From Lingula anatina (Eukaryota; Animalia; Brachiopoda): a stretch of DNA of 64,000 nt. Position numbers and translations under genes: made by a program. The DNA lies in assembly GCA_051362555.1 (NCBI GenBank), contig CM120647.1:806001-870000 (forward strand), read 5' to 3'. The notes beneath the pieces are model-generated. The model searched no databases and was not told the origin of the DNA. It saw nothing but the letters and a program-made list of their open reading frames with translations. Positions within the stretch are counted from its first letter, which is position 1, and each line of letters starts with the position of its first letter. Shown here piece after piece: positions 1,156 through 62,173 of this stretch.

Positions 1156-1564
1156 GGAAATATGTGCGTGGTGAGTTGCGGCTCGGGAACATGTGTGAGT
1201 ATGGCGGTCAGTGGGACACGATACCAAGGTCAAGGACGAACTATCTCATGTCACGGGGCATTTGTTCCTTAGCCGACAGACTGCAGCTGCCATCTGGTGG
1301 CCAGTTTAAATCTAAAATCGAAACAAAATTGGATTCACACAAGAAAGTACCAAATTCAGCAAACAAGATGAAACCTAAAAATGAAATAAAATTGGACTCA
1401 TCCAAGAAATCCCCTAGTTTAGCAAGCGAGTTGAAATCTAAAAATGAAAGAAAATTGGAACCACCCAAGAAAGCTCCAAGTTTACTGAGCGAGTTTAAAT
1501 CTAAAAACGAAACAAAACTGGTATCATCCGAGATTGTTCCAAAGAAGACGTTGGGATATATCAG
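1156..1564 (+). CDS. Exon A1: C-terminal part of an upstream NTR/TIMP domain plus 4 linker repeats
   Basis: ttttcag|GGAAATATG ... ATCAG|gtacgt; 409 nt; reads GKYVRGELRLGNMCEYGGQWDTIPRSRTNYLMSRGIC... Confidence 0.85.
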
Positions 1565-4500
1565 GTACGTACAGCCTTCGATCCGATCTTTTGTGAAAGA
1601 CAACTTATTTAGTTTTTGCTAGGACCGGTTTAGTCGATTTGTTAAGTTGATCACAACCTCCTGGTCTTAATATCTAATGACACAGAAAGCCGCTTAAAGA
1701 GCACTTCTGTCTGCCCGTCTGTCTGTCTGTTTGTCCGTCTGTTTGTCTGTCTGTCTGTCTGACTATCTCTTACCTTAGGATCACTTGTTTCTAGGTTCGA
1801 GAAGCTGAAACATGGATGTGTTTGTAGACGACCAGACACAAGAGAATCTTTCGACTGCCTTGGAAACAACCACTTTGGTGAGCATACAGTTAATATAAGT
1901 GAGGACAAGAATGGGAAATTGTTTGCCGTAGTATTTTCCCTGTGAGATACTTTTGTATTCGGAAAAATGAAATTAATTTGATATGCACTATTAATTTTCG
2001 AGTAAACGGTGGACTGAATGTTGAAGATGAAGGCAGATTTTCTCTGCAAGACTGCAGCCGTCAAAAATCTGCCATACGGTGTATTATTGGGCAATTCGGG
2101 TGTGATTCTTAAAAGATATGGAGATGATGTTGCCCCATCTCATGATGTTTACTTCTCTGTGCTATTTCAGTAATCAAGGCAAAGGTGATGAAATCCCCTG
2201 AGAGCCGTGACGTCATCCAGCCCTCGGTTTTGTACCGACCTGCCGCTAAATACCTTGTACATATACAACATATATTCAAAGTAAGACTTTTGTCATCAAA
2301 CGCAGTGTAAATTGAGCATATACTTAAAGTAAATCTTCGTTTTAAAAGTGACCGTAATACCTCGAAAATGAATCTCTTCATTATTATTTATTTATTTATT
2401 TATTTGCAGTTTTGGATGGGTCATTCATGTTAGTTAGTAATAAAATGGGAACATTGAATAATTTTAGGATGTGTCTGGAAGTCTTGAGACTGGTGACAAT
2501 TACGTGACGGCAAACAGATCCTCTTTCGTATGTGATACTTATTTAATTACTGGAGAAGAATATTTACTTAAAGGTAATAAAGTGTGGACCTATAAGACCA
2601 GTCATGTGTTGGCTTAAAAGGGCTGTCAATACTTGATTATATAAATTTAAACTATGGAGCGTCACTGAGCATATTTTGCTGAATGTCATGCATTTTGTCT
2701 GTTTGATTGTCCTTGCCTTTGGCACGAATTGGCCAATAAATTCTATCTTTAGTGGTGAAAAAGTTTATTTATTTATTATTATTATTATTGTTTTTTTATT
2801 TGTTATTATTATTATTATTATTATTTTTTTTTTTTTTTTTGCATTGCCTGAAGTGTAGAAATGATAAGAAATTATTCTTTCTATGGAGATTACAGCGCAT
2901 GACGTTTTGACATAACTGATTCTGTTTTCGGTTACAATATAAAGTTTTATACTAATCATTTTCAGGGAAATATGTACGTGGTGAGTTGCGGCTCGGGAAC
3001 ATGTGTGAGTATGGCGGTCAGTGGGACAGGATACCAAGGTCAAGGACGAACTATCTCATGGCACGGGGCATTTGTTCCTTAGCCGACAGACTGCATCTGC
3101 CATCTGGTGGTCATTTTAAATCTAAAAACGAAACAAAATCGGAATCACCCAAGATAGCTCCAAGTTTAGCAAAGAAATTGAAATCTAAAAACGAAATAAA
3201 ATTGGACTCACCCAAGAAAGCTTCAAATTTACTAAGCGAGTTGAAAGCTCAAAACGAAACAAAACTGGTATCATCCAAGAAAGCTCCAAGTTCACTTAGC
3301 GACTTGAAATCTAAAAACGAAACAAAATTGGAACCACCCAAGAAAGCTCCAAGTTTAGTTGGCGGCCTTGCATCTAAAAACGAAACAAAAATGGTATCAT
3401 CCAAGCTGGCTCCTGAAAAGACGTTGCAAGATATCAGGTACGTACATTATTTGAGCTCTTGTGAAAGGCACATAATTCAGTTTTCGCTATGGCCAGTTTG
3501 CAATTTTAGTCGATTTGTGAAGTCGGTCACAACCTCGAAACTTATCCAACTGACATAGCGCAGCTTTCTATCCATCTTTGGCCAATTTAACATAGAAATG
3601 TTCAGTTTTCATCGTTTGACTGGTGTTCTTGTTTATGAGATGTCAAGCCGGAGATACACAGAAAACTGCTATGCTTGTTATGAGGAGAGTCCATCTGTCT
3701 TTCTGTCTGTCTATCTGACTGTCTCTTACCTTAGGATCACTTGTTTCTAGGTTCGAGAAGCTGAAACATGGATGTGTTTATAGACGACCAGACACAAGAG
3801 AATCTTTCGACTGCCTTGGACACAATCACTTTGGTGAGCTTACAGTTAACAAAGCATACATAAGAACGAACAAGCATAGAACATTCTTTGTGGTAGTTTT
3901 TGATTATTTTCTCCTTGTTGGATGTTTTTGTATCGGAAAATAGAATTATGTTGATTTGCACTATTAAGTTTCGAGTGAACCGTGGCTGAAAGTTGAAGAT
4001 GAAAGCAGATTTTCTCTGCAAGACTGCAGCCACCTAACATCTATCCTTACGACGCATGATTAGGCAACACGGGAGTTATTCTTTTAAAAAAATGATGATG
4101 CCCCCTATCGTAATGTTTACTTCTCTGTGCTGTTTCAGTGATCAAGGCAAAGGTGATGAAATCCGCTGAGAGCCGTGACGTCATCCAGCCCTCGGTTTCG
4201 TACCGACCTGCCGCTAAATACGCTGTACATATACAACATATATTTAAGGTAAGTCTATATGAACATGTACTTAAAGTTAGGCTTGGTTTGAAGGTGGGAG
4301 TTTGTAAATTAAACTTGTAAACCGTAAAATAAAGAAGTGACCGTAATAGCTCGAAAATGGGTCTCTTCATCGTCATTTTTGGCGGTTTTGGATTGGATAT
4401 TCATGTTAGTTAGTGATAAAATGGGAATGTTGCATAATTTCAGGATGTGTCTGGAAGTCTTAAGACAGGTGACAATCACGTGACGGCAAACAGATCCTCT

Positions 4501-7500
4501 TTCGTCTGTGATACTTATTTGATTACTGGAGAAGAATTCTTACTTAAAGGTAAGAAAGTGTGAGCCTTTAAATTCAATCATATACGGATTTTAACATCTA
4601 TATCTTGACTTACAATGGCTGTCAACACTTAATAATATAAGGAAAACAACATGCGTCCTTCTCAGCTTCACTTCTAATTAATGTTGACTCGTTTTATCAT
4701 TTTAGATATAGATAAAGTCTTTGTGTTTATTATAATATGAATGAAAGTTTATTTATCTCAATCCTTAATTTTGCTTTAGTTTTTTGATAATTTATTTACA
4801 AACACTTTCTAATTTGCGCATGATTTTTCGACATAAGTGAGGCTGAGTTATATAACAATATCGGTTGCACTATTTATTATTTTTCAGGGAAATATGTGCG
4901 TGGTGAGTTGCGGCTCGGGAACATGTGTGAGTATGGCGGTCAGTGGGACAAGATACCAAGGTCAAGGACGAACTATCTCATGTCACGTGGCAGTTGTTCC
5001 TTAGCCGACAGACTGCAGCTGCCATCTGGTGGCCAGTTTAAATCTAAAAACGAAAGAAAATTGGAATCACCCAAGATCGCTCCAAGTTCAGCAAAGGAGT
5101 TGAAACTTAAAAACGAAGTGAAATTGGACTCACCCAAGAAAGCCCCAAGTCCAGCAAGCGAGTTGAAATCTAAAAATGAAAGAAAATTGGAACCACCCAA
5201 GAAAGCTCCAAGTTTAGCAAGCGAGTTGAAATCTAAAAACGAAACAAAACTGGTATCATCCAAAAAGGCTCATAAGGAGACGTTGGGAGAGAAAGGGTAT
5301 GTATATCCTTAGAGCTTTTGTGAAAGGCAACTTATTCAGTTTTTAAATTTGCTATGGCCAGTTTGCAAATTGAGTCGATTTGTGAAGTCTGGCACAACCT
5401 TGAATCTCATCCAACTGTAGCACAGCTTTCTATCCATCTTTGGCCAATTTAACATACAAGAGTTAAGTTTTTCATCGTTCAAGTTTGACTGGTATTCATA
5501 TCTATTACATGTAAAGCCATGACACAGAAAACCGCTATGCTGCTTATGAAGAGAGTTCATCTGTCTGTCTGTTTGTCTGTCTGTCTATCTGTCTATCTGA
5601 CTGTCTCTTAATTTAGGATCACTTGTTTCTAGGTTCCAGAAGCTGAAACATGGATGTGTTTGTAGACGACCAGATACAAGAGAATCCTTCGACTGCCTCG
5701 GAAACAACCACTTTGGTGAGTTTTGATATAGCATACATAAGAACGAACAAGCATGGAAAATTCTTTGCGATAGTTTTCGGTTATTCTCCCCTTGTTGCAT
5801 GTTTTTGTATCGGAAAATAGAATTATGTTGATTTGCACTATTAAGTTTCGATTGAACCGTGGCTGAAAGTTGAAGATGAAAGCAGATTTTCTCTGCAAGA
5901 CTGCAGCCACCTAAAATCTATCCTTACGACGCATGATTAGGCAACTCGGGAGTTATTCTTCAAAAAAAAATGATGATGCCCCCTGTCGAAATGTTTACTT
6001 CTCTGTGCTGTTTCAGTGATCAAGGCAAAGGTGATGAAATCCGCTGAGAGCCGTGACGTCATCAAACCCTCGGTTTCGTACCGACCTCCCGCTACATATG
6101 CTGTACATATACAGCATTTATTTAAAGTAAGTTTTTGTCATTAAATGCAGTACGTATGAAACATGTTTTTAAAGTCAATCTTTGTTGTGAGCTGGGGCTG
6201 GTAACTTTAACTCGTAAACTGTGAAGTATAGAAATTACCGTAATAGCTCCAAAATTGGTCTCCAGCTCGTTTTTTTACGGTTTTGGGTGGGGAATTGATG
6301 TAACTTAGTGATCAATTAGGAATGTTGTATATCCAGTGAAATACTTCTATTTTTCTTCACTGTTTTTCCTTTTCCAACCTAATAACTCGTTCCAAAAATC
6401 ACCATTTATTGATATTACTTTTAGGATTTGTCTGGAAATCTTGAAACTGGTGACAATTACGTGATGACAAACAGATCCTCTTTCGTCTGTGATACTTATT
6501 TGATTACGGGAGAAGAATATTTACTAAAAGGTAAGAAAGTGTGAGCCTTTAAATTCAATCATATACGGATTTTAACATCAATATTTGGCTTACAATGGCT
6601 GTCAACACTTAATAATATAAGGAAAACAACCTGCGTCCTTCTCAGTTTCACTTCCACTTAATGTTGACACATTTTATCATTTTAGATATAGATAAAGTCT
6701 TTGTGTTTATTATAATACGAATGAAAGTTTATTTATCTCAATTCTTAATTTTTCTTTAGTTTTTTGATAATTCATTTACAAACACTTTCTAATTAACGCA
6801 TGATTTTTCGACATAAGTGAGGCTGAGTTCTATAACAATATCGGTTGCAATATTTACTATTTTTCAGGGGAATATGTGCATGGTGAGTTGCGGCTCGGGA
6901 ACATGTGTGAGTATGGCGGTCAGTGGGACAAGATACCAAGGTCAAGGACGAACTATCTCATGTCACGTGGCAGTTGTTCCTTAGCCGACAGACTGCAGCT
7001 GCCATCTGGTGGCCAGTTTAAATCTAAAAACGAAAGGAAATCGGAATCACCCAAGATCGCTCCAAGTTCAGCAAAGGAGTTGAAACTTAAAAAAGAAGTG
7101 AAATTGGACTCACCCAAGAAAGCCCCAAGTTCAGCAAGCGAGTTGAAATCTAAAAATGAAACAAAATTGGAACCACCCAAGAAAGCTCCAAGTTTAGCAA
7201 GCGAGTTGAAATCTAAAAACGAAACAAAACTGGTATCATCCAAAAAGGCTCATAAGGAGACGTTGGGAGAGAAAGGGTATGTATATCCTTAGAGCTTTTG
7301 TGAAAGGCAACTTATTCAGTTTTTAAATTTGCTATGGCCAGTTTGCAAATTGAGTCGATTTGTGAAGTCTGGCACAACCTTGAATCTCATCCAACTGTAG
7401 CACAGCTTTCTATCCATCTTTGGCCAATTTAACATACAAGAGTTAAGTTTTTCATCGTTCAAGTTTGACTGGTATTCATATCTATTACATGTAAAGCCAT

Positions 7501-10500
7501 GACACAGAAAACCGCTATGCTGCTTATGAAGAGAGTCCATCTGTCTGTCTGTTTGTCTGTCTGTCTATCTGTCTATCTGACTGTCTCTTGATTTAGGATC
7601 ACTTGTTTCTAGGTTCGAGAAGCTAAAACATGGATGTGTTTGTAGACGACCAGACACAAGAGAATCATTCGACTGCCTTGGAAACAACCACTTTGGTGAG
7701 TTTTAATATAGCATACATAAGAACGAAGAAGCATGGAAAATTCTTTGCGATAGTTTTTGGTTATTTTCCCCTTGTTGGATGTTTTTGTATCGGAAAATAG
7801 AATTATGTTGATTTGCACTATTAAGTTTCGAGTGAACCGTGGCTGAAAGTTGAAGATGAAAGCAGATTTTCTCTGCAAGACTGCAGCCACCTAAAATCTA
7901 TCCTTACGACGCATGATTAGGCAACTCGGGAGTTATTCTTTTAAAAAAATGATGATGCCCCCTGTCGAAATGTTTACTTCTCTGTGCTGTTTCAGTGATC
8001 AAGGCAAAGGTGATGAAATCCGCTGAGAGCCGTGACGTCATCCAGCCCTCGGTTTCGTACCGACCTGCCGCTAAATACGCTGTACATATACAACATATAT
8101 TTAAGGTAAGTCTATAAACATGTACTTAAAGTAAGTCTTGGTTTTAAGTTGGGAGTTTGTAAATTAAACTTGTAAACCGTAAAATAAAGAAGTGACCGTA
8201 ATAGCTCGAAAATGGGTCTCTTCATCGTCATTTTTGGCGGTTTTGGATTGGATATTCACGTTAGTTAGTGATAAAATGGGAATGTTGCATAATTTTAGGA
8301 TGTGTCTGGAAGTCTTGAGGCAGGTGACAATAACGTGACGGCAAACAGATCCTCTTTCGTCTGTGATACTTATTTAATTACTGGAGAAGAATATTTACTA
8401 AAAGGTAAGAAAGTGTGAGCCTTTTAAATCTATCAAATACACATTTAAACCTATATTTGGAAAATATAAGGAAAATAACGCTGCGGCCTTCTCTCTCAGC
8501 TTCACTTCTACTTAATGTTGACACATTTTATCATTTTAGACATAGATAAAGTCTTTGTTTTTATTATAAGATGAATGGAGGTTTAAATATCTCACTTCTT
8601 AATTTTTCTTTAGTTTTTTGATAATTTATTTACAATTTCTTACTAATTTACGCATGATTTTTCGACATAATTAGGCCGAGTTATATAACAACATCGATTT
8701 TAGTATTTATTATTTTTCAGGGAAATATGTACGTGATGAGTTGCGGCTCGGGAACATGTGTGAGTATGGCGGTCAGTGGGACAGGATACCAAGGTCAAGG
8801 ACGAACTATCTCATGTCACGGGGAACCTGTTCTTTAGCCGACAGACTGCAGCTTCCATTTGGTGGCGAGCTTAAATCTAATAACGAAAGAAAATTGGAAT
8901 CACCCAAGATCGCTCCAAGTTCAGCAAGCGAGTTGAAATCTAAAAACGAAACAAAATTGGAAGTACCCAAGAAAGCACCAAGTTTAGCAAGCAAGTTGAA
9001 AGCTACACACGAAACAAAACTGGTATCATCCAAGAAAGCTCCAAGTTCACTTAGCAAGTTAAAATCTAAAAACGTAACAAAATTGGAAGTACCCAAGAAA
9101 GCACCAAGTTTAGCAAGCAAGTTGAAAGCTACACACGAAACAAAACTGGTGTCATCCAAGAAAGCTCCAAGTTCACTTAACAAGTTGAAATCTAAAAACG
9201 AAACAAAATTGGAACCACGGGAGAAATATCCCAGTTTAGTAAGGGAGTTTAAATCTAAAATCGAAACAAAACTGGTATCATCTGAGATGGTTCCAAGTTT
9301 AGCAAAGGAGTTGAAACTTAAAAATGGAATAAAATTGGATTCACCCAAGATCGCTCCAAGTTTAGCAAGCGAGTTGAAATCTAAAAATGAAACAAAACTG
9401 TTATCATCCAAGAAGGCTCATAAGGAGACGTTGGGAGAGAAAGGGTACGTATGTCCTTCGAGCTTTTGTGAAAGGCAACTTATTCAACTTATGGCCAGAT
9501 TGCAAATTTAGTCAATTTGTGAAGTCTGTTACAACCTTGAATCTCATCCAACTGTAGCACAGCTTTCTATCCATCCTTTGCCATCTTTGGCAAATTTAGC
9601 ATAGAAAAGTTTAGTTTTTCATCGTTCAAGTTTGACTGGTTTTCATATCTATAACATGTAAAGCCGGCGTGACACAGAAAACTGCTATGCTGGTTATGAA
9701 GAGAGTCCATCTGTCTGTCTGTCTATCTAACTGTCTCTTACCTTAGGATCACTTGTTTCTAGGTTCGAAAAGCTAAAACATGGATGTGTTTGTAAACGAC
9801 CAGACACAAGAGAATCTTTCGACTGCCTTGGACACAATCACTTTGGTGAGCTAACAGTTAACATAGCATAAATAAGAACGAACAAGCATGGAACATTCTT
9901 TGCGGTAGTTTTTGATTACTTTCCCCTCGTTGGATGCTTTTGTATCTGAGAATAAATCTATGTTTAATTGCACTATTAATTTTTGAGTGAATGGTGGCCG
10001 AAAGTTGAAGATGAAGGCAGATTTTTTTTTCTGCAAGACTGCAGCCACCTGAAACATGCTATACAACGCATGATTGGGTAACACAGGAGTTATTCTTTAA
10101 AAAAAATTATGATGCCCCTATCGTAATGTTTACTTCTTTGTACTATTTCAGTGATCAAGGCAAAGGTGATGAAATCCGCTGAGAGCCGTGACGTCATCCA
10201 GCCCTCGGTTTCGTACCGACCTGCCGCTAAATACGCTGTACATATAGAGCATATATTTAAAGTAAGTCTTTGAACATGTACTTAAAGTGAGTCTTGGATT
10301 TAAGGTGGGAGTTTGTAAATTAAACTTGTAAACCGTAAATTATAGAACTGAACGTAATAGCTCGAAAACAGGTCTTTTGATCGTTATTTTTGACGGTTTT
10401 GGATTGGATATTCATGTTAGTTAGTGATAAAATGGGAATATTGAATAATTTTAGGATGTGTCTGGAAGTCTTGAGACAGGTGACAATTACGTGACGGCAA

Positions 10501-13500
10501 ACAGATCCTCTTTCGTCTGTGATACTTATTTAATTACTGGAGAAGAATATTTACTAAAAGGTAAGAAAGTGTGAGCCTTTAAATTCAATCTTATACGGAT
10601 TTTATACCTATATTTGGGCTTACAATTACTGTCAACAATAATATACAACGCTGCATCCTTCTCAGCTTCGATCACTTCTACTTTATGGTATCTTTTTGTA
10701 TCATTTTAGATATAGACAAAGTCTTTGTTTTTATTATAAGATGAATTAAAGTTTATTTATCACCCTTCATAATTTTTCTTTAGTTTTTTTATAATATATT
10801 TACAAACAATTTACTAATTTAAGAATGATTTTTCGACATAAGTGAGGCTGAGTTATATAACAACATCGATATCAGTATTTATTACTTTTCAGGGAAATAT
10901 GTGCGTGGTGAGTTGCGGCTCGGGAACATGTGTGAGTATGGCGGTCAGTGGGACAGGATACCAAGGTCAAGGACGAACTACCTCATGTCACGGGGCAGTT
11001 GTTCCTTATCCGACAGACTGCAGCTGCCATTTGGTAGCCAGTTTAATTCTAAAAATGAAACAGAATTGGAATCACCCAAAATAGCTCCAAGTTTAGCAAG
11101 CAAGTTGAAAGCTACACACGAAACAAAACTGGTATCACCCATTAAAGCTCCAAGTTCACTTAGCAAGTTGAAATCTAAAAACGAAAGAAAATTGGAACCA
11201 AGCGATAAATATCCCAGTTTAGTAAGGGAGTTTAAATCTAAAAACGCAACAAAACTGGTATCGTCCGAGATGGCTCCAAGTTTAGCAAAGGAGTTGAAAC
11301 TTAAAAACGGAACAAAATTGGAATCACCCAAGATGACCCCTAAGAAGACGTTGGGAGATATCAGGTACGTACATCCTTCGAGCTTTTGTGAAAGGCAACT
11401 TATTCAGTTTTTGCTATGGCCAGTTTGCAAATTTAGTCGATTTGTGAAGTCTGTCACAACCTTGAATCTCATCCAACTGTAGCACAGCTTTCTCTCCATC
11501 TTTGGCCAAATTAACCTAGAAGAGTTCAGTTTTTCATCGTTCAAGTTTGACTACTGTTCGTGTCTATAAGATGTAAAGCCGGCTTGACACAGAAAACTGC
11601 TATGCCTTTTATGAACAGAGTATATCCGTCTGTCTGTTTGTCTGTCTGTATGTCTATCTGATTGTCTCTTACCTTAGGATCACTTGTTTCTAGGTTCGAG
11701 AAGCTAAAACATGGATGTGTTTGTAGACGACCAGACACAAGAGAGTCTTTCGACTGCCTTGGACACAATCACTTTGGTGAGCTTACAGTTAACATAGCAT
11801 ACATAAGAACGAACATACATGGAAAATTCTTTGCGGTAGTTTTTGGTTACTTTTCCCTGGTTGGATGTTTTTGTATCGGAAAATAGAATATGTTGAATTG
11901 AACTATTAAGTTTCGTGTGAACCGTGGCTGAAAGTTGAAGACGAAAGCATATTTTCTCCGCAAGACTGCAGCCACCTAAAATATATCCTTTCGACGCATG
12001 ATAAGGCAACACGGGAGCTGTTCTTTTAAAAAATGATGATGCCCCCTATCGAAATGTTTACTTCTCTTTGCTATTTCAGTGATCAAGGCAAAGGTGATGA
12101 AATCCGCTGAGAGCCGTGACGTCATCCAGCCCTCGGTTTCGTACAGACCTGCCGCTGAATACGCTGTACATATAGAGCATATATTTAAAGTAAGTCTATG
12201 AACATGTACTTAAAGTGAGTCTTGGATTTAAGGTGGGAGCTTGTAAATTAAACTTGTAAACCTTAAGATATAGAAGTGACCGTAATAGCTCGAAAACGGG
12301 TCTCTTGATCGTTATTTTTGACGGTTTTGGATTGGATATTCATGTTAGTTAGAGATAAAATGGGAATATTGAATAATTTTAGGATGTGTCTGGAAGTCTT
12401 GAGACAGGTGACAATTACGTGACGGCAAACAGATCCTCTTTCGTCTGTGATACTTATTTAATTACTGGAGAAGAATATTTACTAAAAGGTAAGAAAATGT
12501 GAGCCTTTAAATTCAATCATATACGGATTTTAACATCTATATTTGGCTTACAGTGGCTGTCAACACTTAATAATATAAGGAAAATAACGCTGCGTCCTTC
12601 TCAGCTTCACTTCTACTTAATGTTGACACATTTCATCAGTTTAGATATAGATTAAGCCTTTGTGCTTCTTGTAACGTGAATGAAAGTTTATTTATACTGG
12701 AGAAGAATATTTACTTAAAGGTAAGAAAGTGAGAGCCTTTAAATTCAATCATATACGGATTTTAACATCAATATTTTGGCTTACAACACTTAATAATATA
12801 AGGAAAATAACGCTGCGTCCTTCTCAGCTTCACTTGTACTTAATGTTGACACATTTCATCAATTTAGATATAGATAATGTCTTTGTGTTTATTATAACGT
12901 GAATGAAAGTTTATTTATCTCACTTTTTAACTTTTCTTTTAGTTTTTGGGTAATTAATTGACAAGCATTTACTAATTTAGGCATGGTTTTTCGACATAAG
13001 TGAGGCTGAGTTATATAACAACATTGATTTCATTATTTATTATTTTTTAGGGAAATATTTGCATGGTGAGTTGCAGCTCGGGAACATGTGTGAGTATGGC
13101 GGTCAGTGGGATAGGATACCAAGGTCAAGGACGAACTATCTCATGTCACGGGGCACTTGTTCTTTAGCCGACAGACTGCATCTGCCATCTGGTGGCGAGT
13201 TTAAATCTAAAAACGAAAGAAAATTAGAATCACCCAAGATCGCTCCAAGTTCAGCAAAGAAGTTGAAGTCTAAAAGCAAAACAAAATTGGAACCACCCAA
13301 GAAAGCTCCAAGTTTACTGGGCGAATTTAAATCTAAAAACGACACAAAACTGGTATCATCCAAGAAAGCTCATAAGGAGACGTTGGGAGAGAAAGGGTAC
13401 GTACATCCTTCGAGCTTCTGTGAAATGCAACTTATTCAGTTTTTGCTATGGCCAGTTTTCAAATTTAATTGATTTGTGAAGTCTGGCACAACCTTGAATC

Positions 13501-16500
13501 TCATCCAACTGTAGCACAGCTTTCTATCCATCTTTTGCCAATTTAACATAGAAAAGTTGTTTTTCATCGTTCAAGTTTGACTGGTATTCATATCTATAAC
13601 ATGTAAAGCTGGCGTGACACAGAAAATTGCTATACTGGTTATGAAGAGAGTCCATCTGTCTGTCTGTTTGTCTGTCTGTCTGTTTGTCTGACTGTCTATT
13701 ACCTTAGGATCACTTGTTTCTAGGTTCGAGAAGCTAAAACATGGATGTGTTTGTAGACGACCAGACACAAGAGAGTCTTTCGACTGCCTTGGAAACAACC
13801 ACTTTGGTGAGCTTACAGTTAACATAGCATACATAAGAACGAACAAGCATGGAAAATTCTTTGCGGTAGTTTTTGGTTACTTTCCCCTTGTTGGATGTTT
13901 TTGTATCGGAAAATAAATCTATGTTGATTTGCAATATTAATTTTCGAGTGAACGGTGGCTGAAAGTTGAAGATGAAAGCAGATTTTCTCTGCAAGACTGC
14001 AGCCACCTAAAATCTATCCTTACGACGCATGATTAGGCAACACGGGAGTTATTCTTTAAAAAAATGATGATGTCCCCTATCGAAATGTTTACTTCTCTGT
14101 GCTTTTTCAGTGATCAAGGCAAAGGTGATGAAATCCGCTGAGAGCCGTGACGTCATCCAGCCCTCAGTTTCGTACCGACCTCCCGCTACATATGCTGTAC
14201 ATATACAGCATTTATTTAAAGTAAGTTTTTGTCATAAAACACAGTACGTATGAAACATGTTTTTAAAGTCAATCTATGTTGTCAGCTAGGGCTGGTAACT
14301 TTAACTCGTAAACTGTGAAGTATAGAAATTACCGTAATAGCTCAAAAATTGGTCTCCATCTCGTTTTTTTACGGTTTTGGGTGGGGAATTGATGTAACTT
14401 AGTGATCAATTAGGAATGTTGTATATCCAGTGAAATGCTTCTATTTTTCTTTACTGTTTATCCTTTTCCAACCTAATAACTTGTTCCAAAAATCAGCATT
14501 TATTGATATTGCTTTAAGGATGTGTCTGGCAGTCTTAAGACAGGTGACAATTACGTGACGGCAAATAGATCTTCTTTCGTCTGTGATACTTATTTAATAA
14601 CGGGAAAAGAATATTTACTGAAAGGTAAGAACATGTGAACCTTTAAAACCAGTCATATAAGTATTTTAAACATCTATATGTTGGCTCAAATTGGCTGTCA
14701 ATATTTTATTATATTAAGTTAAACAATGCAGCGTTACTGAGCACATTTTGCTAAATGTCATGTATTTTATCTGTTGTATTGTCCATGCCTTTGGCATGAA
14801 TTGGACAATAATTTTTATCTTTAGTGTTGAAAAAGTTTACTTTTTTCCATTGTCGGAAGTGTAAAGACGTTAAGAAATAATCCTTCCTATGGAGGCTACT
14901 CGTCCTTTTTCAGTAACTGACATTTTGACACAACTGACTGTGTGTTAGATAACAATATCAGATCCAATATTTATTATTTTTAGGGAAATATGTGCGTGGT
15001 GAGCTGCGGCTCGGGAACATGTGTGAGTATGGTGGTCAGTGGGACAGGATACCAAGGTCAAGGACGAACTATCTTATGTCACGGGGCACTTGTTCCTTAG
15101 CCGACAGACTGCAGCTGCCATCTGGTGGGGAGTTTAACTCTAAAAAAGAAATAAAATTGGAATCTCTAAAGAAAGCTCCAAGTTTAACAAGCGAGTTGAA
15201 ACCTAAAAACGAAAGAAAATTGGAACCAGCTAAGAAAGCTCCAAGTTTAGTTAGCGGATTTGTATCTAAAAATGAAACAAAAGTGACATCATCCAAGATG
15301 GCTCCTAATAAGACGTTAGGAGAGAAAGGGTACGTATATCCTTTGAGCTTTTGTGAAACGCAACTTATTCAGCTATAAGTGTTTGCTAAGACCGGTTTCC
15401 AATTTTTGTCGATTTGTGAAGTTGATCACAACCTTGACTCTCAACTAATTGTGGCACAACTATCTATCAATCAGTGGCCCATTTCACATAGAGTAGTTTA
15501 CTTTTTTATCGTAAAAGTTGGTCTTAATATCTACGGGGCCATTCAAAATAGGCCTGAGTTTTAACTGGTCCAAGGCTCAAATATGGTGGACCCTACATGA
15601 AAAGAAGGCCGCTTAATCTTGTGATGGGCTCTCTGCCTGTCACACGCCTCCCCAAGCGTCGTCCCTACTGGGGCAAGTAATTAAATCTCGGCTCCATTCG
15701 GCCAGACGCCTGGGGAGCCGTGTGAGAGGTGGAGCGACCATTACAGGACTAAGCGGTCTTCCTTTCTTGTAGCTTCCGCCATATTTTAGGCCTTGGACCA
15801 GTTGATACTCGGATCTTCTATTCGGAATGGCCCCCAAGTTGTCAAGCCGGCGTGACACAGATAAGTGCTATGCTGCTTATGGAGAGAGTCCATCTGTCTG
15901 TCTGTGTGTCTGACTAACTGTCTCTTACCTTAGGATCACTTGTTTCTAGGTTCGAAAAGCTGAAACATGGATGTGTTTGTAGACTACCAGACACAAAAGA
16001 GTCATTCGACTGCCTTGGAGACAACCATTTTGGTGAGTATATTGTAAGATCAAAAATGGAAAATTCAGTTGACAATTGAACTGTTTATTTCATTCGATCG
16101 GTATTAGAATCTTTGACTGGGCCGTCTATGCATAAGACACAAGGAATTTCTTGTTTTCACGAATACTTATGTATTTCTTGCTAGTCTAGTATGTTTAACA
16201 ACGCTTTAGGAAAAAAAATTAATGAACGGAGCTGAAAAGGGCTTTATTTGTTAAAAAACAATATCTGGAAGTTTTATCCCCTGGATACTCTTACAAATAT
16301 TGAAAAGATGATGCCCCCTATCGTAATGTTTACTTCTCTGTGCTATTTCAGTGATCAAGGCAAAGGTGATGAGCTGTACTGCCCCCTATCGTAATGTTTA
16401 CTTCTCTGTGCTATTTCAGTGATCAAGGCAACCGTGATGAGCTGTACTGTCCCTATCGTAATGTTTACGTCTTTGTGTTATTTCAGTAATCAAGGCAAAG

Positions 16501-19500
16501 GTGATGAAATCCGCTGAGAGCCGTGACGTCATCCAGCCCTCGGTTTCGTACCGACCTGCCGCTATATACGCTGTACATATAGAGCATATATTTAAAGTAA
16601 GTCTTTTGTCATCAAACGCGGTGTAAATTGAACATGTACTAAAAGTACTTCCAGTATGTCTTGGTTATAAGGTGGAAGCTGGTAACTTTTAACTTGCAAA
16701 CCGTGAAATATAGAAGTGACCGGGTCTCTTGATCGTTATTTTTGACGGTTTGGAATAGGGTATTTATGTTAATTTATGATAAATTGAGAATGTTGAATAT
16801 TGTTGAATATTAATTTTTCTCTGCTCTTTGTCATTTCCACATTAACCATAACAACTGGTGCGAAAAGTAAACAATTATTGACATTAATTTTAGGATGTGT
16901 CTGGAAGTATTGAGAAAGGTGACAATGTCGTGACGGCAAACAGATCCTCTTTCGTCTGTGATATTTATTTGATTACTGGAGAAGAATATTTACTAAAAGG
17001 TAAGAAAGTGTGAACGTATTAAACCAGTCACATACGTATTTTAAACATCTATAAATTTACTGAGCACATTTTGTCATGCATTATGTCTGTCTGATTGTCC
17101 TTGCCTTTGGCAAGAATTGGCTAAGAAATTTTATCTTGAGTGGTGACAAAGTTTACTTTTTTCCATTGTCCAAAGTGTAAAGACGATAAGAAATAATCCT
17201 TTCTATGGAGGCTACTCGTCCTTTTCCAGTAATTGACATTTCGGCATAACTGACTGTGTGTTATATAACAATATCAGTTCCAATATTTATTATTTTTCAG
17301 GGAAATATGTGCGTGGTGAGTTGCGGCTCGGGAACATGTGTGAGTATGGCGGTCAGTGGGACAGGATACCAAGGTCAAGGACGAATTATCTCATGTCACG
17401 GGGCACTTGTTCCTTAGCCGGCAGACTGCAGCTGCCATCTGGTGGGGAGTTTAACTCTAAAAACGAAACAAAATTGGAATTACCCAAGAAAGCACCAAGT
17501 TCAGTAAGCAAGTTGAAAGCTAAAAACGAAAGAAAATTGGAACCAGCTAAGAAAGCTCCAAGTTTAGTTAGCGGATTTGTATCTAAAAATGAAACAAAAG
17601 TGACATCATCCAAGATGGCTCCTAGCAAGACGTTAGGAGAGAAAGGGTACGTATATCCTTTGAGCTTTTGTGAAACGCAACTTATTCAGCTATTAGTGTT
17701 TGCTAAGACCGGTTTCCAATTTTAGTCGATTTGTGAAGTTGATCACAACCTTGATTCTCAACTAATTGTGGCACAACTATCTATCAATCAATCACTGGCC
17801 CATTTCACATAGAGTAGTTCATTTTTTATCGTTAAAGTTGGTCTTAATATCTGCGGGGCCATTCAAAATAGGCCCGAGTATTAACTGGTCCAAGGCTAAA
17901 TAATATGGTGGACCCTACATGAAAAAAAGACCGTTTAACCTTGTAATGGCCTCTCTGCCTGTCACATGCCTCCCCACGCGCCGTAAATCTCGGCTCCATT
18001 CGACCGGTCGAGGGACAACACGTGGGGAGGCGTGTGAGAGGTGGATAGACCATTACAGGACTAAGCGGTCTTCCTTTCATGTAGCTTCCGCCATATTTGA
18101 GCCTTGGACCAGTTGATACTCGGATCTTCTATTCTGAATGGCCCCCAAGATGTCAGCAGGCGTGACACAGAAAAGTGCTATGCTGGTTATGAAGAGAGTC
18201 CATCTGTCTGTCTCCCTGTCTGTTTGTCTGTCTGTCTGTCTGTCTCTTACCTTAGGATCACTTGTTTCTAGGTTCGAAAAGCTGAAACATGGATGTGTTT
18301 GTAGACTACCAGACACAAAAGAGTCATTTGACTGCCTTGGAGACAACCATTTTGGTGAGTATATTGTAAGATCAAAAACAGAAAATTCAGTTGACAATTG
18401 AACTGTTTATTTTATTCGATCGGTATTAGAATCTTTGACTTGGCCGTCCATGCATAAGACACAAGGAATTTCTTGTTTTCACGAATACGTATGTATTTCT
18501 TGCTAGTCTAGTATGTTTAACAACGCTTTAGGAAAAAAATTAATCAACGGAGCTGAAAAGGGCTTTATTTGTAAAAAAAACAATATCTGGAAGTTTTATC
18601 CCCTGGATACTCACTCTTACAAATATTGAAAAGATTATGCTCCCTATCGTAATGTTTACTTCTCTGTGCTATTTCAGTAGTGATCAAGGCAAAGGTGATG
18701 AGCTGTACTGCCCCCTATCGTAATTTTTTTTAAACAACGTTTATTCAAAAGAATGAAGTGGAGGCAAGGCGCTGGAAGCATTATATGCTCTTCACAAAAT
18801 TAAATTAAATAAGTAAATAAATAAAACAAATGGATAGGTATATACATATATACAACAGAGTAAATGTAAAACTTCATATATATCAGGAGCACAAGTTAAG
18901 TACAGAAAGAAAGAAGAGGAATATTATCTCTTTTCCTCCCCTATCGTAATGTTTACTTCTCTGTGCTATTTCAGTGATCAAGGCAAAGGTGATGAAATCC
19001 GCTGAGAGCCGTGACGTCATCAAGCCCTCGGTTTCGTACCGACCTGCCGCTAAATACGCTGTACATATAGACCATATATTTAAAGTAAGTCTTTTGTCAT
19101 CAAACGCGGTGTAAATTGAACATGTACTAAAAGTACTTCCAGTATGTCTTGGTTATAAGGTGGAAGCTGGTAACTTTTAACTTGCAAACCGTGAAATATA
19201 GAAGTGACCGGGTCTCTTGATCGTTATTTTTGGCGGTTTTGGATAGGGTATTCATGTTAATTAGTGATAAATTGAGGATGTTGAATATCCAGTGAAATAT
19301 TTTAATTTTTCTCTGCTCTTTGTCATTTCCATATTAACCATAACAACTGGTGCGAAAAGTAAATAATTATTGACATTAATTTTAGGATGTGTCTGGAAGT
19401 ATTGAGAAAGGTGACAATTACGTGACGGCAAACAGATCCTCTTTCGTCTGTGATACTTATTTGATTACTGGAGAAGAATATTTACTAAAAGGTAAGAAAG

Positions 19501-22088
19501 TGTGAACGTATAAAACCAGTCACATACCGTACGTATTTTAAACATCTATAAATTTACTGAGCACATTTTGTCATGCATTATGTCTGTTTGATTGTCCTTG
19601 CCTTTGGCATGAATTGGCTAAGAAATTTTGTCTTTAATGGTGAAAAAGTTTACTTTTTTCCATTGTCCGAAGTGTAAAGACGATAAGAAATAATCCTTTC
19701 TATGGAGGGTACTCGTCCTTTTCCAGTAATTGACGTTTCGATATAACTGACTGTGTGTTATATAACAATATCAGTTCCAATATTTATTATTTTTCAGGGA
19801 AATATGTGCGTGGTGAGTTGCGGCTCGGGAACATGTGTGAGTATGGCGGTCAGTGGGACAGGATACCAAGGTCAAGGACGAACTATCTCATGTCACGGGG
19901 AACCTGTTCTTTAGCCGACAGACTGCAGCTGCCATCTGGTGGCGAGTTTAAATCTAAAAAAGAAACAAAATTGGACTCACCCAAGAAAGTTTCAAGTTCA
20001 GCAAGCAAGTTGAAATCTAAAAACGAAAGAAATTTGGAACCACCCAAGAAAGTTCCAAGTTTACTTGGCGAGTTTAAATCTAAAAACAAAACAAAACTGG
20101 TATCATCCAACATGGCTCCTAAGAAAACGTCGGGAGATATCAGGTACGTACATCCTTCGAAAGGCAACTTATTCTGTTTTCGCCATCACCCGTTTGCAAT
20201 TTTAGTCCATTTGTGAAGTCGGTCACAACCTTGAATCTCATCCAATTGTAGCACAGCTATCTATCTATCTTTGGCCCATTTCACATAGAGTATTTCACTT
20301 TGTATCGTACAAGTTGGTCTTAATATCTAAATTGTCAAACCTGCGCCACAAAACTGATAAGTAAGATGTGAGGACTGCCCGTGTGTCTGTCTGTTTGTCT
20401 GTCTGTCTGTCTCTTACCTTTGGATCACATGTTTCCAGGTTCCAAAAGCTGAAACATGGATGTGTTTGTAGACGGCCAGACACAAGAAAGTCATTCGACT
20501 GCCTTGGACACAATCATTTTGGTGAGTATACAATTAATATAAAAAAGATCAAGAATTGAAAATTCAGCTCGCAGTTATACGGTTAACGTGACTCGGTATT
20601 GGAAACTTTGTCTTGGCCGTCTTAACCTAGCCCCTGGTCCGTAATGCATCGACAGCGATAAATATGTATTTGATATAATAGTATTTGATTTCTTTCTTTG
20701 ATTTCTTTTCCGTTGTCAAATTGTGTTGTCTTCAGAAAATACATTTTATTTTTACTTCTCTTTTGGGGGAACGGTGTCTGAAAGTTGAAGATGAAGGCAG
20801 ATTTTCTCTGCAAGACTGCAGTCGTCTGAAATATGCTATACAACGTTTGATTGGTCAGTTCTTAAGAGTTACTTTTAAAAGGTAAAGAGCTGATGATGCC
20901 CCCTATCGTAATGTTTACGTCTCTGTGCTATTTCAGTGATCAAAGCAAAGGTGATGAAATCCGCTGAGAGCCGTGACGTCATCCAGCCCTCGGTTTCGTA
21001 CCGACCTGCCGCTAAATACCCTGTGCATATACAACATATATTTAAAGTAAGTCTTTGACATAAAACTTTTTACATATGGAACATGGAATTTAAGTAAGTT
21101 TTTGTTGTCGCGTGGAGGCTGATGACTTTTATTCGTAAACTATAAGATATAGAAATAACTTCAATAGCTCGAAAAATGGGTCTGTAGAAAATTATTTTTT
21201 CGGTTTTGTATAAGGTATTCGTGTTAATTAGTGATAAACTGGGAATGGTAAATATCCAATGAAATATTTTACTTTTTCTTTACCCTCTCTCCTCTTCCAT
21301 ATAAACTACAATAACTCGTTCGAAAAATTAACGTTTATTGATATTAATTTTAGGATGTGTCTGGAAGTCTTAAGAAAGGTGACAATTACGTGACGGCAAA
21401 CAGATCCTCTTTCGTCTGTGATACTTATTTTATTACGGGAAAAGAGTATTTACTAAAAGGTAAGAAAATGTGGAACTTTAAAATCAGCCATATATGCATT
21501 TTTAACATCTATGTGTTGGCAATACTTGATTAGCTAAATGGCATGCATTATGTCTGTTTGATTGTCCTTGCTTTGGCATGAATTGGCTAAGAATTTTTAT
21601 TTTTAGTGGTGAAAAAGTTAGCTTTTTATCCACTGTCCTTTTCCAGTAATCGATGTTTCGACATAACTAACTTAGTGTTATGTAACAATATAATTTTCCA
21701 TACTAATTTTATTTCAGGGAAATATGTGCGTGGTGAGTTGCGGCTCGGGAACATGTGTGAGTATGGCGGTCAGTGGGACAAGATACCAAGGTCAAGGACG
21801 AACCATCTCATGTCACGGGGCACTTGTTCTTTAGCCGACAGACTGCAACTGCCATCTAGTGGCGAGTTTATATCTAAAAACGAAACACAACTGACAATAC
21901 CCAAGTTAGCTCCAAGCTTAGTTAGCCAGTTTAAAACTAAAAACAAAACAAAATTAGTATCACCCATAATAGCTCAAAGTTTAGTTACCAAGTTTAAATT
22001 AAAAAACAAAACAAAATGGGAACCTTCCAAGAACATGCCAAGTTTTGCGACTAAGCGCAAAGTCCAGCCATTAATCTGGGGTCGGTAA
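1156..22088 (+). CDS. Multi-exon gene (5' end outside window) encoding a tandem N-TIMP/NTR-domain polyprotein: 10 complete domains plus the tail of an 11th, joined by Lys/Ser/Pro-rich 21-aa repeat linkers
   Basis: Repeating exon order A-B-C-D with GT-AG boundaries and constant phases (A|B 2, B|C 1, C|D 0, D|A 1). B is 83 nt, C 110 nt and D 106 nt in every module; A is 346+63n nt. The spliced frame is open over 7640 nt to TAA at 22086-22088. Domain consensus HG-CVCRRPDTRESFDCLGNNHFVIKAKV..KYAVHIQHIFKD..VTANRSSFVCDTYLITGEEYLLKGKYVRGELRLGNMCEYGGQWDRIPRSRTNYLMSRGTC has the six Cys and VIRAK-like motif of the TIMP N-terminal (NTR) domain. Confidence 0.88.
1795..3437 (+). CDS. NTR/TIMP module 1 (exons 1795-1877, 2171-2280, 2468-2573, 2966-3437; 5 linker repeats)
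   Basis: GT-AG sites, frame continuous, six Cys present. Confidence 0.85.
3751..5296 (+). CDS. NTR/TIMP module 2 (3751-3833, 4139-4248, 4444-4549, 4888-5296; 4 linker repeats); Cys3 replaced by Tyr
   Basis: GT-AG sites, frame continuous; TGT GTT TAT at 3773-3781. Confidence 0.85.
5633..7276 (+). CDS. NTR/TIMP module 3 (5633-5715, 6017-6126, 6425-6530, 6868-7276; 4 linker repeats)
   Basis: GT-AG sites, frame continuous. Confidence 0.85.
7613..9444 (+). CDS. NTR/TIMP module 4 (7613-7695, 7996-8105, 8299-8404, 8721-9444; 9 linker repeats)
   Basis: GT-AG sites; A exon is 724 nt = 346 + 6x63. Confidence 0.85.
9763..11364 (+). CDS. NTR/TIMP module 5 (9763-9845, 10152-10261, 10455-10560, 10893-11364; 5 linker repeats)
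   Basis: GT-AG sites, frame continuous. Confidence 0.85.
11694..13396 (+). CDS. NTR/TIMP module 6 (11694-11776, 12080-12189, 12383-12488, 13051-13396; 3 linker repeats)
   Basis: GT-AG sites, frame continuous. Confidence 0.85.
13724..15329 (+). CDS. NTR/TIMP module 7 (13724-13806, 14111-14220, 14519-14624, 14984-15329; 3 linker repeats)
   Basis: GT-AG sites (exon D acceptor is the weaker AAG), frame continuous. Confidence 0.83.
15535..15834. mobile_element. Fold-back MITE (GGGGCCATTC...GAATGGCCCC) in the intron before module 8
   Basis: Long imperfect inverted arms; absent from the homologous intron of the other modules except the one before module 9. Confidence 0.75.
15950..17646 (+). CDS. 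NTR/TIMP module 8 (15950-16032, 16487-16596, 16894-16999, 17301-17646; 3 linker repeats)
   Basis: GT-AG sites; the exon C acceptor region is triplicated upstream. Confidence 0.82.
17855..18145. mobile_element. Second copy of the GGGGCC fold-back MITE at the homologous intron position before module 9
   Basis: Same termini and same insertion point as 15535-15834. Confidence 0.75.
18272..20143 (+). CDS. NTR/TIMP module 9 (18272-18354, 18975-19084, 19386-19491, 19798-20143; 3 linker repeats)
   Basis: GT-AG sites, frame continuous. Confidence 0.82.
18725..18937 (-). mobile_element. Truncated non-LTR retroelement or retroposed 3' end
   Basis: On the minus strand it ends AATAAA-cgttgttt-poly(A); flanked by the 13-bp duplication CCCCTATCGTAAT (18712-18724, 18938-18950). 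Confidence 0.65.
20439..22088 (+). CDS. NTR/TIMP module 10, terminal (20439-20521, 20937-21046, 21354-21459, 21718-22088 including stop)
   Basis: The last A exon has diverged linker repeats, lacks the usual donor and ends KRKVQPLIWGR-TAA. Confidence 0.85.
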
Positions 22089-22395
22089 TGATAATACCGG
22101 AGTTCCGTATGCGGTGACAGAAATTATCCACTGACATTTGCTCTTTAGAGCTGTCAAAGTATACGTACAGTCCATTGCTTCCTATATTCCTTTTGTTTCA
22201 TAATTTATTTATTGCCCTTCATAATTTATTGCAGAACATTTTTTCATGTTTTCTTTTTGTTTTGTGTAAGCATTTGTGTTTTTGGAGTTATCTATTAACT
22301 TGTGTGCTGTATATTGTTTTCGTTACTTTTTTAACTTGTCATATATTTTGTACAACAGAAATTTATATTTCAAGTTGATGGTTGTGTATAAATGG

Positions 22396-22401
22396 AATAA
22401 A
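22396..22401 (+). terminator. Probable polyadenylation signal of the poly-TIMP gene
   Basis: AATAAA about 310 nt after the stop codon, following a T-rich 3'UTR. Confidence 0.6.
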
Positions 22402-22852
22402 AGTATGTAAAAACCATTATATCATGTCTATTCATATGAATTTCATTTAGTCTACTATTGAATAATGTTCATGAAAATGAATCCCATTCTACTTTTGTGG
22501 AGTCTTATATAGAAAGTTTTCCCTAAATCTTCATCCATCCGGCCCTGATCAGACGTTGTGCGTATACAGCTGTCGTCTTCTGTGGCGGCCAGTTCGCACT
22601 CCCTCTGTGGTCTTGTATAAGTGCTCATTGCCAATGAAATTATCATTCTACGTAGATCGATCCAACTTCTCGGGGACTCTTGCTAAATGCAATCAGATTA
22701 AAAGATTAACGCGTCTCTTCCTGGCATTACATGGACAGAATACAGAATAGCTGGTGATAAAACGAGTATGGAGGAAACAGGAAGCGTTAGTCTGTTAATC
22801 CGATCTAACTGAGATAGGCACTGTGCTATTTTAATTGGCATTTCGTTTGTCC

Positions 22853-23559
22853 CACGCTCGGCTGTCACCTTGATTGGATAGTAAACAATACTGCCGGGCA
22901 TCGGAGCGGCCTAAAACTTGGCACGCTTACCGCAAATACTGCAGGCTACATCATCCCGTCGCTCGTTTGTAAATTCCGTGCATGGCATACGCACAATCAA
23001 ACCGTACATCCAAATTCCACCTCTGATGTTTGAATTGGTCCTCTACACTATCCAAATCAGGAAGTGACGTAACCGCAGAGGTCGCATTGTCCAATGGCAT
23101 GGCTTCTTTTTCGTAATGGTAGGTTAGACAGGACCGACTCAAACATCAGAGGTGGAATTTGGATGTACGGTTTGATTGTGCGTATGCCATGCACGGAATT
23201 TACAAACGATTAACGGGATGATGTAGCCTGCAGTATTTGCGGTAAGCGTGCCACGTTTAAGGCCGTTCCGATGCCCGGCAGTATTTTATTTCGATTATTC
23301 TGTTTAAAATTGTGGATTCTTGTTTCACAAGCTTACTCTATTTTATTGTCTCTATGGAGGTACAGGTATATGGGGACTTTACGACATTCGGTTTGAAGGC
23401 TTTAACCACTTGTTATAGTTTATTTTTGCATTGTATTGGATTAATGTGGCAGTCCAAGGTTGTCCTAGGTGGTTTTCAAGTTTATGCACCCGGTTTTAAT
23501 ACCATTTAGCGATTTTACGACAATCGTTTACTATCCAATCAAGGTGACAGCCGAGCGTG
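22853..23559. mobile_element. Non-autonomous DNA transposon with 34-bp TIRs and 8-bp TSD (hAT-like TSD length)
   Basis: TIR CACGCTCGGCTGTCACCTTGATTGGATAGTAAAC at both ends; TSD GTTTGTCC at 22845-22852 and 23560-23567. Confidence 0.8.
22891..23281. mobile_element. Nested fold-back MITE (~140-bp arms, TA-flanked)
   Basis: ta|CTGCCGGGCATCGG...TGATGTTTGA is mirrored by TCAAACATCA...CCGATGCCCGGCAG|ta. Confidence 0.75.
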
Positions 23560-37815: not shown

Positions 37816-38875
37816 GTAATAGATAGACCCCGAGTCAGCGAGGGTTATGTGGCATACACGAGTGCGTAGCACGAGTGGATGTCACATAACCCTCGCTGAC
37901 GAGGGGTCTATCTTACTTAGACCACGGTCCATAACTTCAACAACAGTTCACGACATTACACCCACGCAACTACCCCGCTATCTTCATTACCACACTATTC
38001 ATCATGTTTGGAGCAAAGGAGGACGTCACCCTCTGTCAGCTAGATTTATTACCAACCCAATCGTTATATAAGGTGGATATCGATGCAGAATCAAAGCGGT
38101 TCGAAGTGCCAGTTCATTCCGCTGAATTTGAAAAAAAAATGGTTGCAGACATAATTCCAGCAAACACACAGAAAAATACGACCTGGGCATGTAATATATT
38201 TAAGGACTGGCGCACGTGGCGTAATTTTAGAACTGTCACTATGGCCGACCCTCACTGGCCTATTCCAACCCTTGAGGTGGGGAATCTAGAGATTTTGGAT
38301 TATTGGTTGGCAAGATTCATAACGGAAATTAAGCGCCAAGATGGCAGTTCCTATCCGCCAGGTGTGTTTAATTTTTCTTATCATTCGTTATTATCTTTTA
38401 AGTCGCAGCAGCACCCTGCTTCAATATTGTTAAAACATTTCAAATAAATATACAATATTCGTGAAACAACTATATTTTGAATTTCAAAAGCATCGTGCGC
38501 TTCAGTAACTTCATCTTCAACCCAGCCTGCAAGCTCTTTATCGGCACCTCCAATGAAGCAAAATACGGAAAAGGACGACAAAATTTTAACAATTGAAATA
38601 CTTTCTGTTATTGAGAAAGTTGTAATAATAAAAAACGGCCAAAAGATCACTTTTGAAATATAATACAGCTTGTTTTTTTTTTTCTTTCTTTTTTCATATG
38701 CGGTGATAAACGCTCAGTCCCTAATTAACTTGCTTTCAGGTGTGTTTACGGTTCTGTGCTTCGATGAGTAGTATGTGTGTGTTTTAGCGGGTTATAACGC
38801 ATTCATGCGAGACGTGCGGTTATGCGAGTTACACCACGTCTGAGTCTTTTGTTTTTCACTTCCACCGTGGTCTAA
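37816..38875 (+). mobile_element. Crypton-like (tyrosine-recombinase transposon) deletion derivative inserted in TIL copy 3 intron 1
   Basis: Absent from copies 2 and 4 (empty site GGACAA|AATTG), no clear TSD. It has a 5' hairpin and TTAGACCACGGT/ACCGTGGTCTAA inverted ends. It encodes IPANTQKNTTWACNIFKDW...LDYWLARFITEIKRQDGSSYPP, typical of the region N-terminal to DUF3504 in CryptonA/ZMYM/QRICH1-type proteins. Confidence 0.75.

Positions 38876-62122: not shown

Positions 62123-62173
<51 letters not shown>

Follow-up and report, generated by a model that had tools for sequence, protein, structure and literature searches.

Proteins of the TIMP family are described as having one shared architecture and as apparently never having taken part in domain shuffling (PMC3927612), and reviews recognise only single-domain forms and forms that combine an N-terminal with a C-terminal domain, for which double-domain is the term used (PMC9409782). 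The single-domain TIMPs of nematodes and cnidarians are without the C-terminal domain (PMC9409782), and echinoderm TIMPs have one NTR domain (PMC8467561). Inhibition by a TIMP requires the free amino group of Cys1, and blocking this group severely reduces MMP inhibition (PMC3003256). The TIMP fold is also found in matrix or adhesive material, i.e., in the scallop byssal protein Sbp8-1, in holothurian tensilin and in R20097001 of the brachiopod Magellania, each described with one TIMP domain. Tensilin has collagen-aggregating activity. Sbp8-1 is non-inhibitory (PMC5975577), and Magellania R20097001 is a basic protein (pI 9.96) with a TIMP-like OB-fold that makes up 6-10% of the shell proteome (PMC4453069). 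Here we compare with these systems a locus of the brachiopod Lingula anatina. It lies in a stretch of 64,000 nucleotides (the window; assembly GCA_051362555.1, contig CM120647.1, positions 806,001 to 870,000, numbered below from the first nucleotide of the stretch) where one gene, covered by the window at 1156..22088 on the + strand, likely gives rise to a giant secreted protein with eleven N-TIMP domains.

Exon array and joining of the modules

Between positions 1156 and 22088, 41 exons on the + strand, found by anchor search and joined by script, give a stop-free frame of 2,546 amino acids, and all 40 introns are GT-AG. The exons form ten modules of four exons each (B-C-D-A), preceded by the last exon (A0) of an eleventh; in motif and anchor searches exon A came up eleven times and exons B, C, and D ten times each. 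In every one of the ten modules B is 83 nt long, C 110, and D 106, the exon phases of a module are 2-1-0-1-2, and the internal A exons have a length of 346 + 63n nt, so that the frame is always kept. The preliminary description of this DNA had read ten full modules and a partial one into a single frame of about 2,546 residues, with no internal stop and no internal signal-peptide exon, and this is borne out: the joined frame holds no internal stop and a tblastn search with the RefSeq signal exon found no copy of it in the window. The VIKAK and EYLLxG motifs that it assigned to each domain are likewise present, as VIKAK and E(Y/F)LLKG, in 10/10 modules. Its N-TIMP cysteine pattern (here positions 1, 3, 14, 79, 106, and 129 of the domain) stands for nine of the ten window modules and fails for module 2, which reads C-V-Y instead of C-V-C (codons from 3773).

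Exon A0 (1156..1564) encodes the end of domain 1 and the first Lys-rich linker. It is followed, all on the + strand, by module 1, which is domain 2 (1795..3437; B 1795-1877, C 2171-2280, D 2468-2573, A 2966-3437; Cys1 codon at 1817), module 2 (3751..5296; B 3751-3833, C 4139-4248, D 4444-4549, A 4888-5296), module 3 (5633..7276; B 5633-5715, C 6017-6126, D 6425-6530, A 6868-7276), module 4 (7613..9444; B 7613-7695, C 7996-8105, D 8299-8404, A 8721-9444), module 5 (9763..11364; B 9763-9845, C 10152-10261, D 10455-10560, A 10893-11364), module 6 (11694..13396; B 11694-11776, C 12080-12189, D 12383-12488, A 13051-13396), module 7 (13724..15329; B 13724-13806, C 14111-14220, D 14519-14624, A 14984-15329), module 8 (15950..17646; B 15950-16032, C 16487-16596, D 16894-16999, A 17301-17646), module 9 (18272..20143; B 18272-18354, C 18975-19084, D 19386-19491, A 19798-20143), and module 10, which is domain 11 (20439..22088; B 20439-20521, C 20937-21046, D 21354-21459, terminal A 21718-22088). 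Only this last A exon ends in a stop codon (TAA, 22086-22088), and a predicted 3' untranslated region (22089..22401) with AATAAA at 22396 follows. Decoy splice sites are found as a second, duplicated D donor at 12720 (module 6) and as copies of the C-exon acceptor at 16352 and 16420 (module 8) and at 18681 (module 9); their use would lead to stops or frameshifts.

The logic of the sequence, together with the RefSeq models, suggests that each A exon splices onto the B exon of the next module. A GT donor is found at the same place and in the same phase in all ten internal A exons, reading through it would meet stops scattered 5-40 codons further on, and 8/10 introns contain an in-frame stop a short way upstream of B. 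AATAAA or ATTAAA is absent before the next B after nine of ten A exons. An independent gene per module was rejected on these scattered stops, on the missing poly(A) signals and on the lack of signal-exon copies. Five of the ten A-B introns contain ATG-led hydrophobic stretches, made of a TCTG microsatellite; that of intron 9 reads in frame into B9, probably by chance.

RNA evidence comes from four of the nine raw-read runs filed under the species label, 6-25% of each, in which 13, 0, 6, and 10 reads, i.e., 29 in all, fall on the last module and none on the predicted 3' untranslated region. The joints within a module are spanned, always at GT-AG sites, by 5 reads (B-C), 3 + 3 reads (C-D), and 3 + 2 reads (D-A), and the module-to-module joint, A to B, is not among the 29 reads of the four runs. 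Of the joining proposed earlier, the three intramodule steps are thus seen in reads and the A-to-B step is not, while the assembly of the modules into one gene with a single open frame recurs in the RefSeq models. The reads are 90-99% alike, and their B and C variants exactly match none of the ten window modules; they may therefore stem from domain 1 or from another allele.

It is conceivable that shorter messages dominate, with the signal exon (phase 2) spliced to any B exon or with modules skipped, so that the main products carry one to a few domains and the eleven-domain chain is rare. All B acceptors have the same phase and a near-identical sequence, RefSeq lists seven isoforms that differ by whole modules, and the decoy sites in modules 6, 8, and 9, the unseen A-to-B joint and the unmatched read variants are also in line with this. 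However, the stop and the poly(A) signal are found only after the last A exon, so that a message with an internal module in it has to join an A exon to a later B, the ten modules are under purifying selection with all splice sites intact (see below), and the RefSeq isoforms could be cross-mapping artefacts. We consider a predominance of shorter messages unlikely.

With exon A0 as the query three clusters were retrieved, 94% identical to it, and all of them are Lingula anatina "uncharacterized protein" entries of LOC106171063 or LOC106164868. These counterparts (XP_013398355 and isoforms for LOC106164868, XP_023932294 for LOC106171063) and the window gene are, as judged from sequence, the same gene. 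The A0 linker shares 94% identity with the linker that comes first in the RefSeq models P0001 (from LOC106171063), P0002, and P0006, and the terminal tail in A10 of the window is 95% identical to the linker with which P0002 and P0006 end. The models hold fewer domain starts, seven in P0001 and P0006 and six in P0002 as compared with eleven domains here, which may reflect real copy-number variation or collapse in the RefSeq assembly. They begin with a hydrophobic leader (13-residue hydropathy 2.9, as against at most 1.2 in the window protein) for which signal cleavage is predicted, by eye, after residue 25, following AEA; 20 residues ending in FQKLKHG then precede the first C-V-C. The window likely starts within the intron that leads to the final exon of domain 1, with the B, C, and D exons of this domain and the signal-peptide exon predicted to lie upstream. 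As the A0 linker matches the first RefSeq linker, the number of domains is most likely exactly 11, which confirms and narrows the "at least 11" of the preliminary description, and the full protein would run to about 2,683 amino acids. At the C-terminus of P0001 the B exon runs on into intron sequence, which suggests that this model is truncated. The LOC106171063 and LOC106164868 models are identical at the N-terminus and may be haplotypes of one gene.

Purifying selection acts on the modules, with pN/pS 0.30 (of 94 changes 49 are nonsynonymous; p=2e-7), and all ten contributed to this signal. Identity between modules is 91-97% in the domain exons (94%) and 71-81% on average in the introns. The four intron classes give conflicting trees: module 3 groups with module 4 in the A-B and B-C introns and with module 7 in the C-D introns. 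This conflict fits unequal crossing-over or conversion. Because the repeated unit is flanked on both sides by phase 2 introns (2-2 symmetric) it could multiply in frame, and the array may well have grown by unequal crossing-over of this unit; such a unit shows how a normally non-mobile domain could multiply inside one gene. The array could in principle be an assembly artefact or a decaying segmental duplication with no functional multi-domain product, since its module count differs from that of the RefSeq models (11 vs 6-7) and the adjoining region carries another tandem array. Against this, the modules differ by 3-9% in exons and by 19-29% on average in introns and carry module-specific insertions, the same architecture is found in an independent (RefSeq) assembly, and the 41 exons show no stop or frameshift together with the low pN/pS, so that we give this explanation a negligible chance. 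An insertion of ~300 nt with inverted-repeat-like ends (15500-15840 and 17850-18150) is present only in the introns before modules 8 and 9, which marks these two as a recent duplicate pair.

Domain identity and relatives

By profile and fold comparison the domains belong to the TIMP/NTR superfamily and are of the N-TIMP type, as the preliminary description had proposed. A single domain of the RefSeq counterpart passes the Pfam cut-offs of both TIMP (PF00965; 36.8 bits, cut-off 23.1) and NTR (24.4 bits, cut-off 21.9), and in P0001 as well as in P0002 a Pfam scan finds six stretches of TIMP; single window exons gave no Pfam match above cut-off. The TIMP match ends at profile position 121 of 183, from which it follows that the C-terminal TIMP domain with its three disulfides is absent, also as proposed, and the linkers contain no Cys. 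A phmmer search against PDB matched TIMP-2 and TIMP-3 no better than at E 0.4-0.7, and atlas matches of 0.84-0.87 to TIMP/NTR clusters are leads only.

An AlphaFold model of the domain from its single sequence had no usable fold (pLDDT 32). With an alignment of 69 bacterial TIMP-like proteins, drawn from the 113 usable of 120 bacterial loci and in 26 of 69 cases also matching Pfam TIMP, the model reached pLDDT 72 and pTM 0.69 and forms a five-stranded OB barrel; as the alignment proteins were chosen by motif, it leans to the TIMP fold and shows compatibility rather than fully independent confirmation. The five top Foldseek matches of this model are all TIMP-1 or TIMP-2. In VIA-align it matches TIMP-3 (3cki_B; root-mean-square deviation 3.2, 109 aligned) and TIMP-1 (1uea_B) with Z 8.8, above complement C345C and agrin NtA at Z 7.9, where rows less than 1 Z apart count as tied. 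A hidden Markov model of the 113 bacterial proteins scores -0.4 to 3.7 bits against each of the window domains. The bacterial set is an observation in its own right: one short motif led to at least 120 TIMP-like genes in many phyla, Ala stands directly before C-S-C in 104/113, and their profile matches human TIMP-1, -2, and -3 structures with E down to 1.7e-12.

The closest described system is the N-terminal domain of TIMP-1, -2, and -3, which the Lingula domains resemble in Pfam match, six-Cys register, VIKAK strand, and OB barrel. The Lingula protein differs from TIMPs in having eleven tandem copies, a blocked Cys1 and long basic repeat linkers, and in lacking the HPQ motif after C3 (absent in 10/10 modules), which some echinoderm TIMP-like proteins also lack (PMC8467561). 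The non-inhibitory NTR modules of agrin (NtA), complement (C345C), PCOLCE1, and meteorin are of the same fold family (Z 7.3-7.9) and are binding modules in larger proteins. They are single modules fused to other domains; in contrast to them the Lingula protein keeps the TIMP-type C1-x-C3 at the start of its domains, and its Pfam score is higher for TIMP than for NTR. Magellania R20097001, compared by description only, is a basic brachiopod protein of 376 amino acids with an N-TIMP-like domain and a long tail. The RefSeq models share the first and last linker and the junctions with the window gene and have 6-7 modules instead of 11.

No multi-TIMP protein was found in the literature searched, subscription papers being outside its coverage. 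The words tandem, repeat, and Lingula are absent from PMC4860685, the covered portions of PMC4807446 and PMC3679795 give no multi-TIMP case, and the RefSeq loci are not among the three Lingula TIMP rows in the covered part of a metazoan survey (PMC10755359, its supplementary files 13-14 lying outside the search). A one-domain search of 1.84 billion representatives, for which ordinary TIMPs are also below threshold, gave four matches of which one was Lingula; the other three, repeat-rich proteins whose weak scores had added up, were set aside as unrelated. Word-based searches found no single-domain relative of 74-237 amino acids (0/16 candidates) and no longer version of 921-2,933 amino acids beyond the three Lingula clusters. 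None was found among 147 candidates from metagenome contigs or in phages. As the sequence searches are too insensitive for ordinary TIMPs, diverged multi-TIMP proteins may exist elsewhere. The earlier remark that no described protein of this architecture was known thus holds for the papers found but not for the databases, as RefSeq and UniRef already contain uncharacterised proteins of 6-7 modules: the architecture is present there without a name. The gene is real, and the family of its domains is a known one. A TIMP with eleven domains and a blocked N-terminus breaks both the rule of a fixed architecture and that of single- or two-domain forms, as these are given in PMC3927612 and PMC9409782.

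Blocked Cys1, basic linkers and possible functions

F(E/Q)KLKHG stands ahead of every Cys1, that of domain 1 included. None is therefore free when the chain is made, and the earlier view that Cys1 is buried behind KLKHG extends to RefSeq domain 1 with its 20-residue extension. In no domain is Cys1 the mature N-terminus directly after a signal peptide, although later processing is possible. An N-terminal extension of eight Ala abolished inhibition of every enzyme tested, while N-TIMP-3 that carries one or two added Ala still inhibits ADAM17/ADAMTS (PMC3003256). As at least 20 residues stand ahead of each Cys1, inhibition of the usual kind is not expected from the intact chain. The linkers are built from a unit of 21 amino acids (consensus ELKSKNETKLESPKKAPSLAS; 36 copies matched) and are strongly basic, with 21% Lys, a net charge of +134, and pI 10.1. 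They hold 24 of the 35 N-glycosylation sequons of the protein. Their length changes in whole 21-residue units, which fits retained spacers, and the longest, in module 4, has about nine repeats of 63 nt.

The preliminary description had offered two mechanisms, a latent polyprotein and a non-inhibitory scaffold, and these still stand as the alternatives to be weighed, with the scaffold somewhat ahead. We give about an even chance to the reading that the protein is a non-inhibitory multivalent matrix scaffold rather than a ready-made metalloprotease inhibitor. The gene product would be a secreted, very basic chain with eleven N-TIMP domains in about 2,683 residues, none of the domains having a free Cys1, and such a chain could use its many arms to bind or cross-link the extracellular matrix. 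The Lys/Ser/Pro-rich 21-residue repeats would be extended, probably glycosylated, positively charged spacers that may bind acidic matrix polymers, and the barrels would supply repeated binding surfaces. Sbp8-1, tensilin, and the Magellania shell protein R20097001 serve as precedents for such a use. The change of Cys3 to Tyr that is tolerated in one module was counted for this reading. Several observations weigh against it. First, the A-to-B joint is not seen in the reads, and the read counts are low for a bulk structural protein, albeit in runs of unstated tissue. Second, the C-D loop SSFVC aligns with SSAVC of the reactive-ridge loop of TIMP-2 and would fit a cleavable inhibitor equally well. 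Third, His-Gly precedes Cys1 in 24/24 junctions, from a motif-picked list in which all ten window modules are included. Fourth, the Lingula shell-proteome table of PMC13425148 does not contain the RefSeq accessions, nor does the supplement of PMC4595640 contain TIMP or NTR terms; absence from both shell catalogues means that a shell role is not supported.

The second and third points are also what a latent polyprotein would lead one to expect, i.e., a blocked chain that is opened at HG|C to free Cys1 and so releases as many as ten or eleven N-TIMP inhibitors, each carrying a basic tail that binds the matrix. Such a precursor is possible but on balance doubtful. HG|C stands before every domain. 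Domain 1 is no exception, although its signal peptide could have run right up to Cys1, as it does in the bacterial TIMP-like proteins with Ala at -1 (104/113). C-V-C is kept in 9/10 window modules, TIMP-1 and TIMP-3 come out as the best fold matches, Lys is abundant in the linkers, and activity of N-TIMP-3 on ADAM17/ADAMTS survives the one- or two-Ala extension mentioned above (PMC3003256). On the other hand no furin-type R-x-K/R-R site is present in the 2,546 amino acids, HPQ is absent and module 2 is without Cys3, Cys1 and Cys3 are needed for the disulfides of the fold anyway so that their conservation does not imply inhibition, and the whole B exon is near-invariant, so that the conserved His-Gly may reflect recent duplication. 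Release could proceed by a trypsin-like cut after Lys(-3) and removal of His-Gly by a dipeptidyl aminopeptidase. Dipeptide trimming of this kind is carried out by cathepsin-C-type enzymes. Self-cleavage at His-Gly|Cys alone would recall the canonical autoproteolysis motif of GPS domains, H-X|S/T (PMC13062082), in which Cys is able to act as nucleophile (PMC3321182). However, although the H-G|C motif is there, the Pfam scan shows no autoproteolytic domain of the GPS/GAIN, Nup98, or hedgehog type, and since Cys1 should be disulfide-bonded we hold self-cleavage alone to be highly improbable. If the precursor reading were true, this would be the first pro-TIMP polyprotein, a stored, matrix-anchored chain of eleven blocked inhibitors from which cleavage releases a burst of metzincin inhibitors, TIMP activity being switched on by proteolysis like the target proteases. 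As between this and the matrix scaffold, the tandem TIMP gene offers a clean test of a zymogen-like precursor versus a fold turned into a multivalent matrix or adhesive block in brachiopods.

Other features of the window

Downstream of the gene, around 22900-23290 (region 22818-23290), there are two inverted copies of a ~200-nt stretch. A second tandem array follows at 24081-52058, where four copies of a 7-9 kb unit are 84-96% identical in blocks. Each copy has a signal-peptide-like exon on the + strand (25010, 31822, 39537, and 48304), and the four are, by their sequence, probably paralogues of a small secreted protein. An open frame of 170 codons at 37935-38444 resembles a transposon remnant. 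Near-perfect minisatellites are found at 52977-54103 (59 nt, 19 copies) and at 58350-59042 (33 nt, 21 copies). Finally, an open frame of 325 codons on the + strand (62474-63448), with a possible earlier exon at 61988-62209, is rich in Thr and Ser and resembles a mucin-like stalk.

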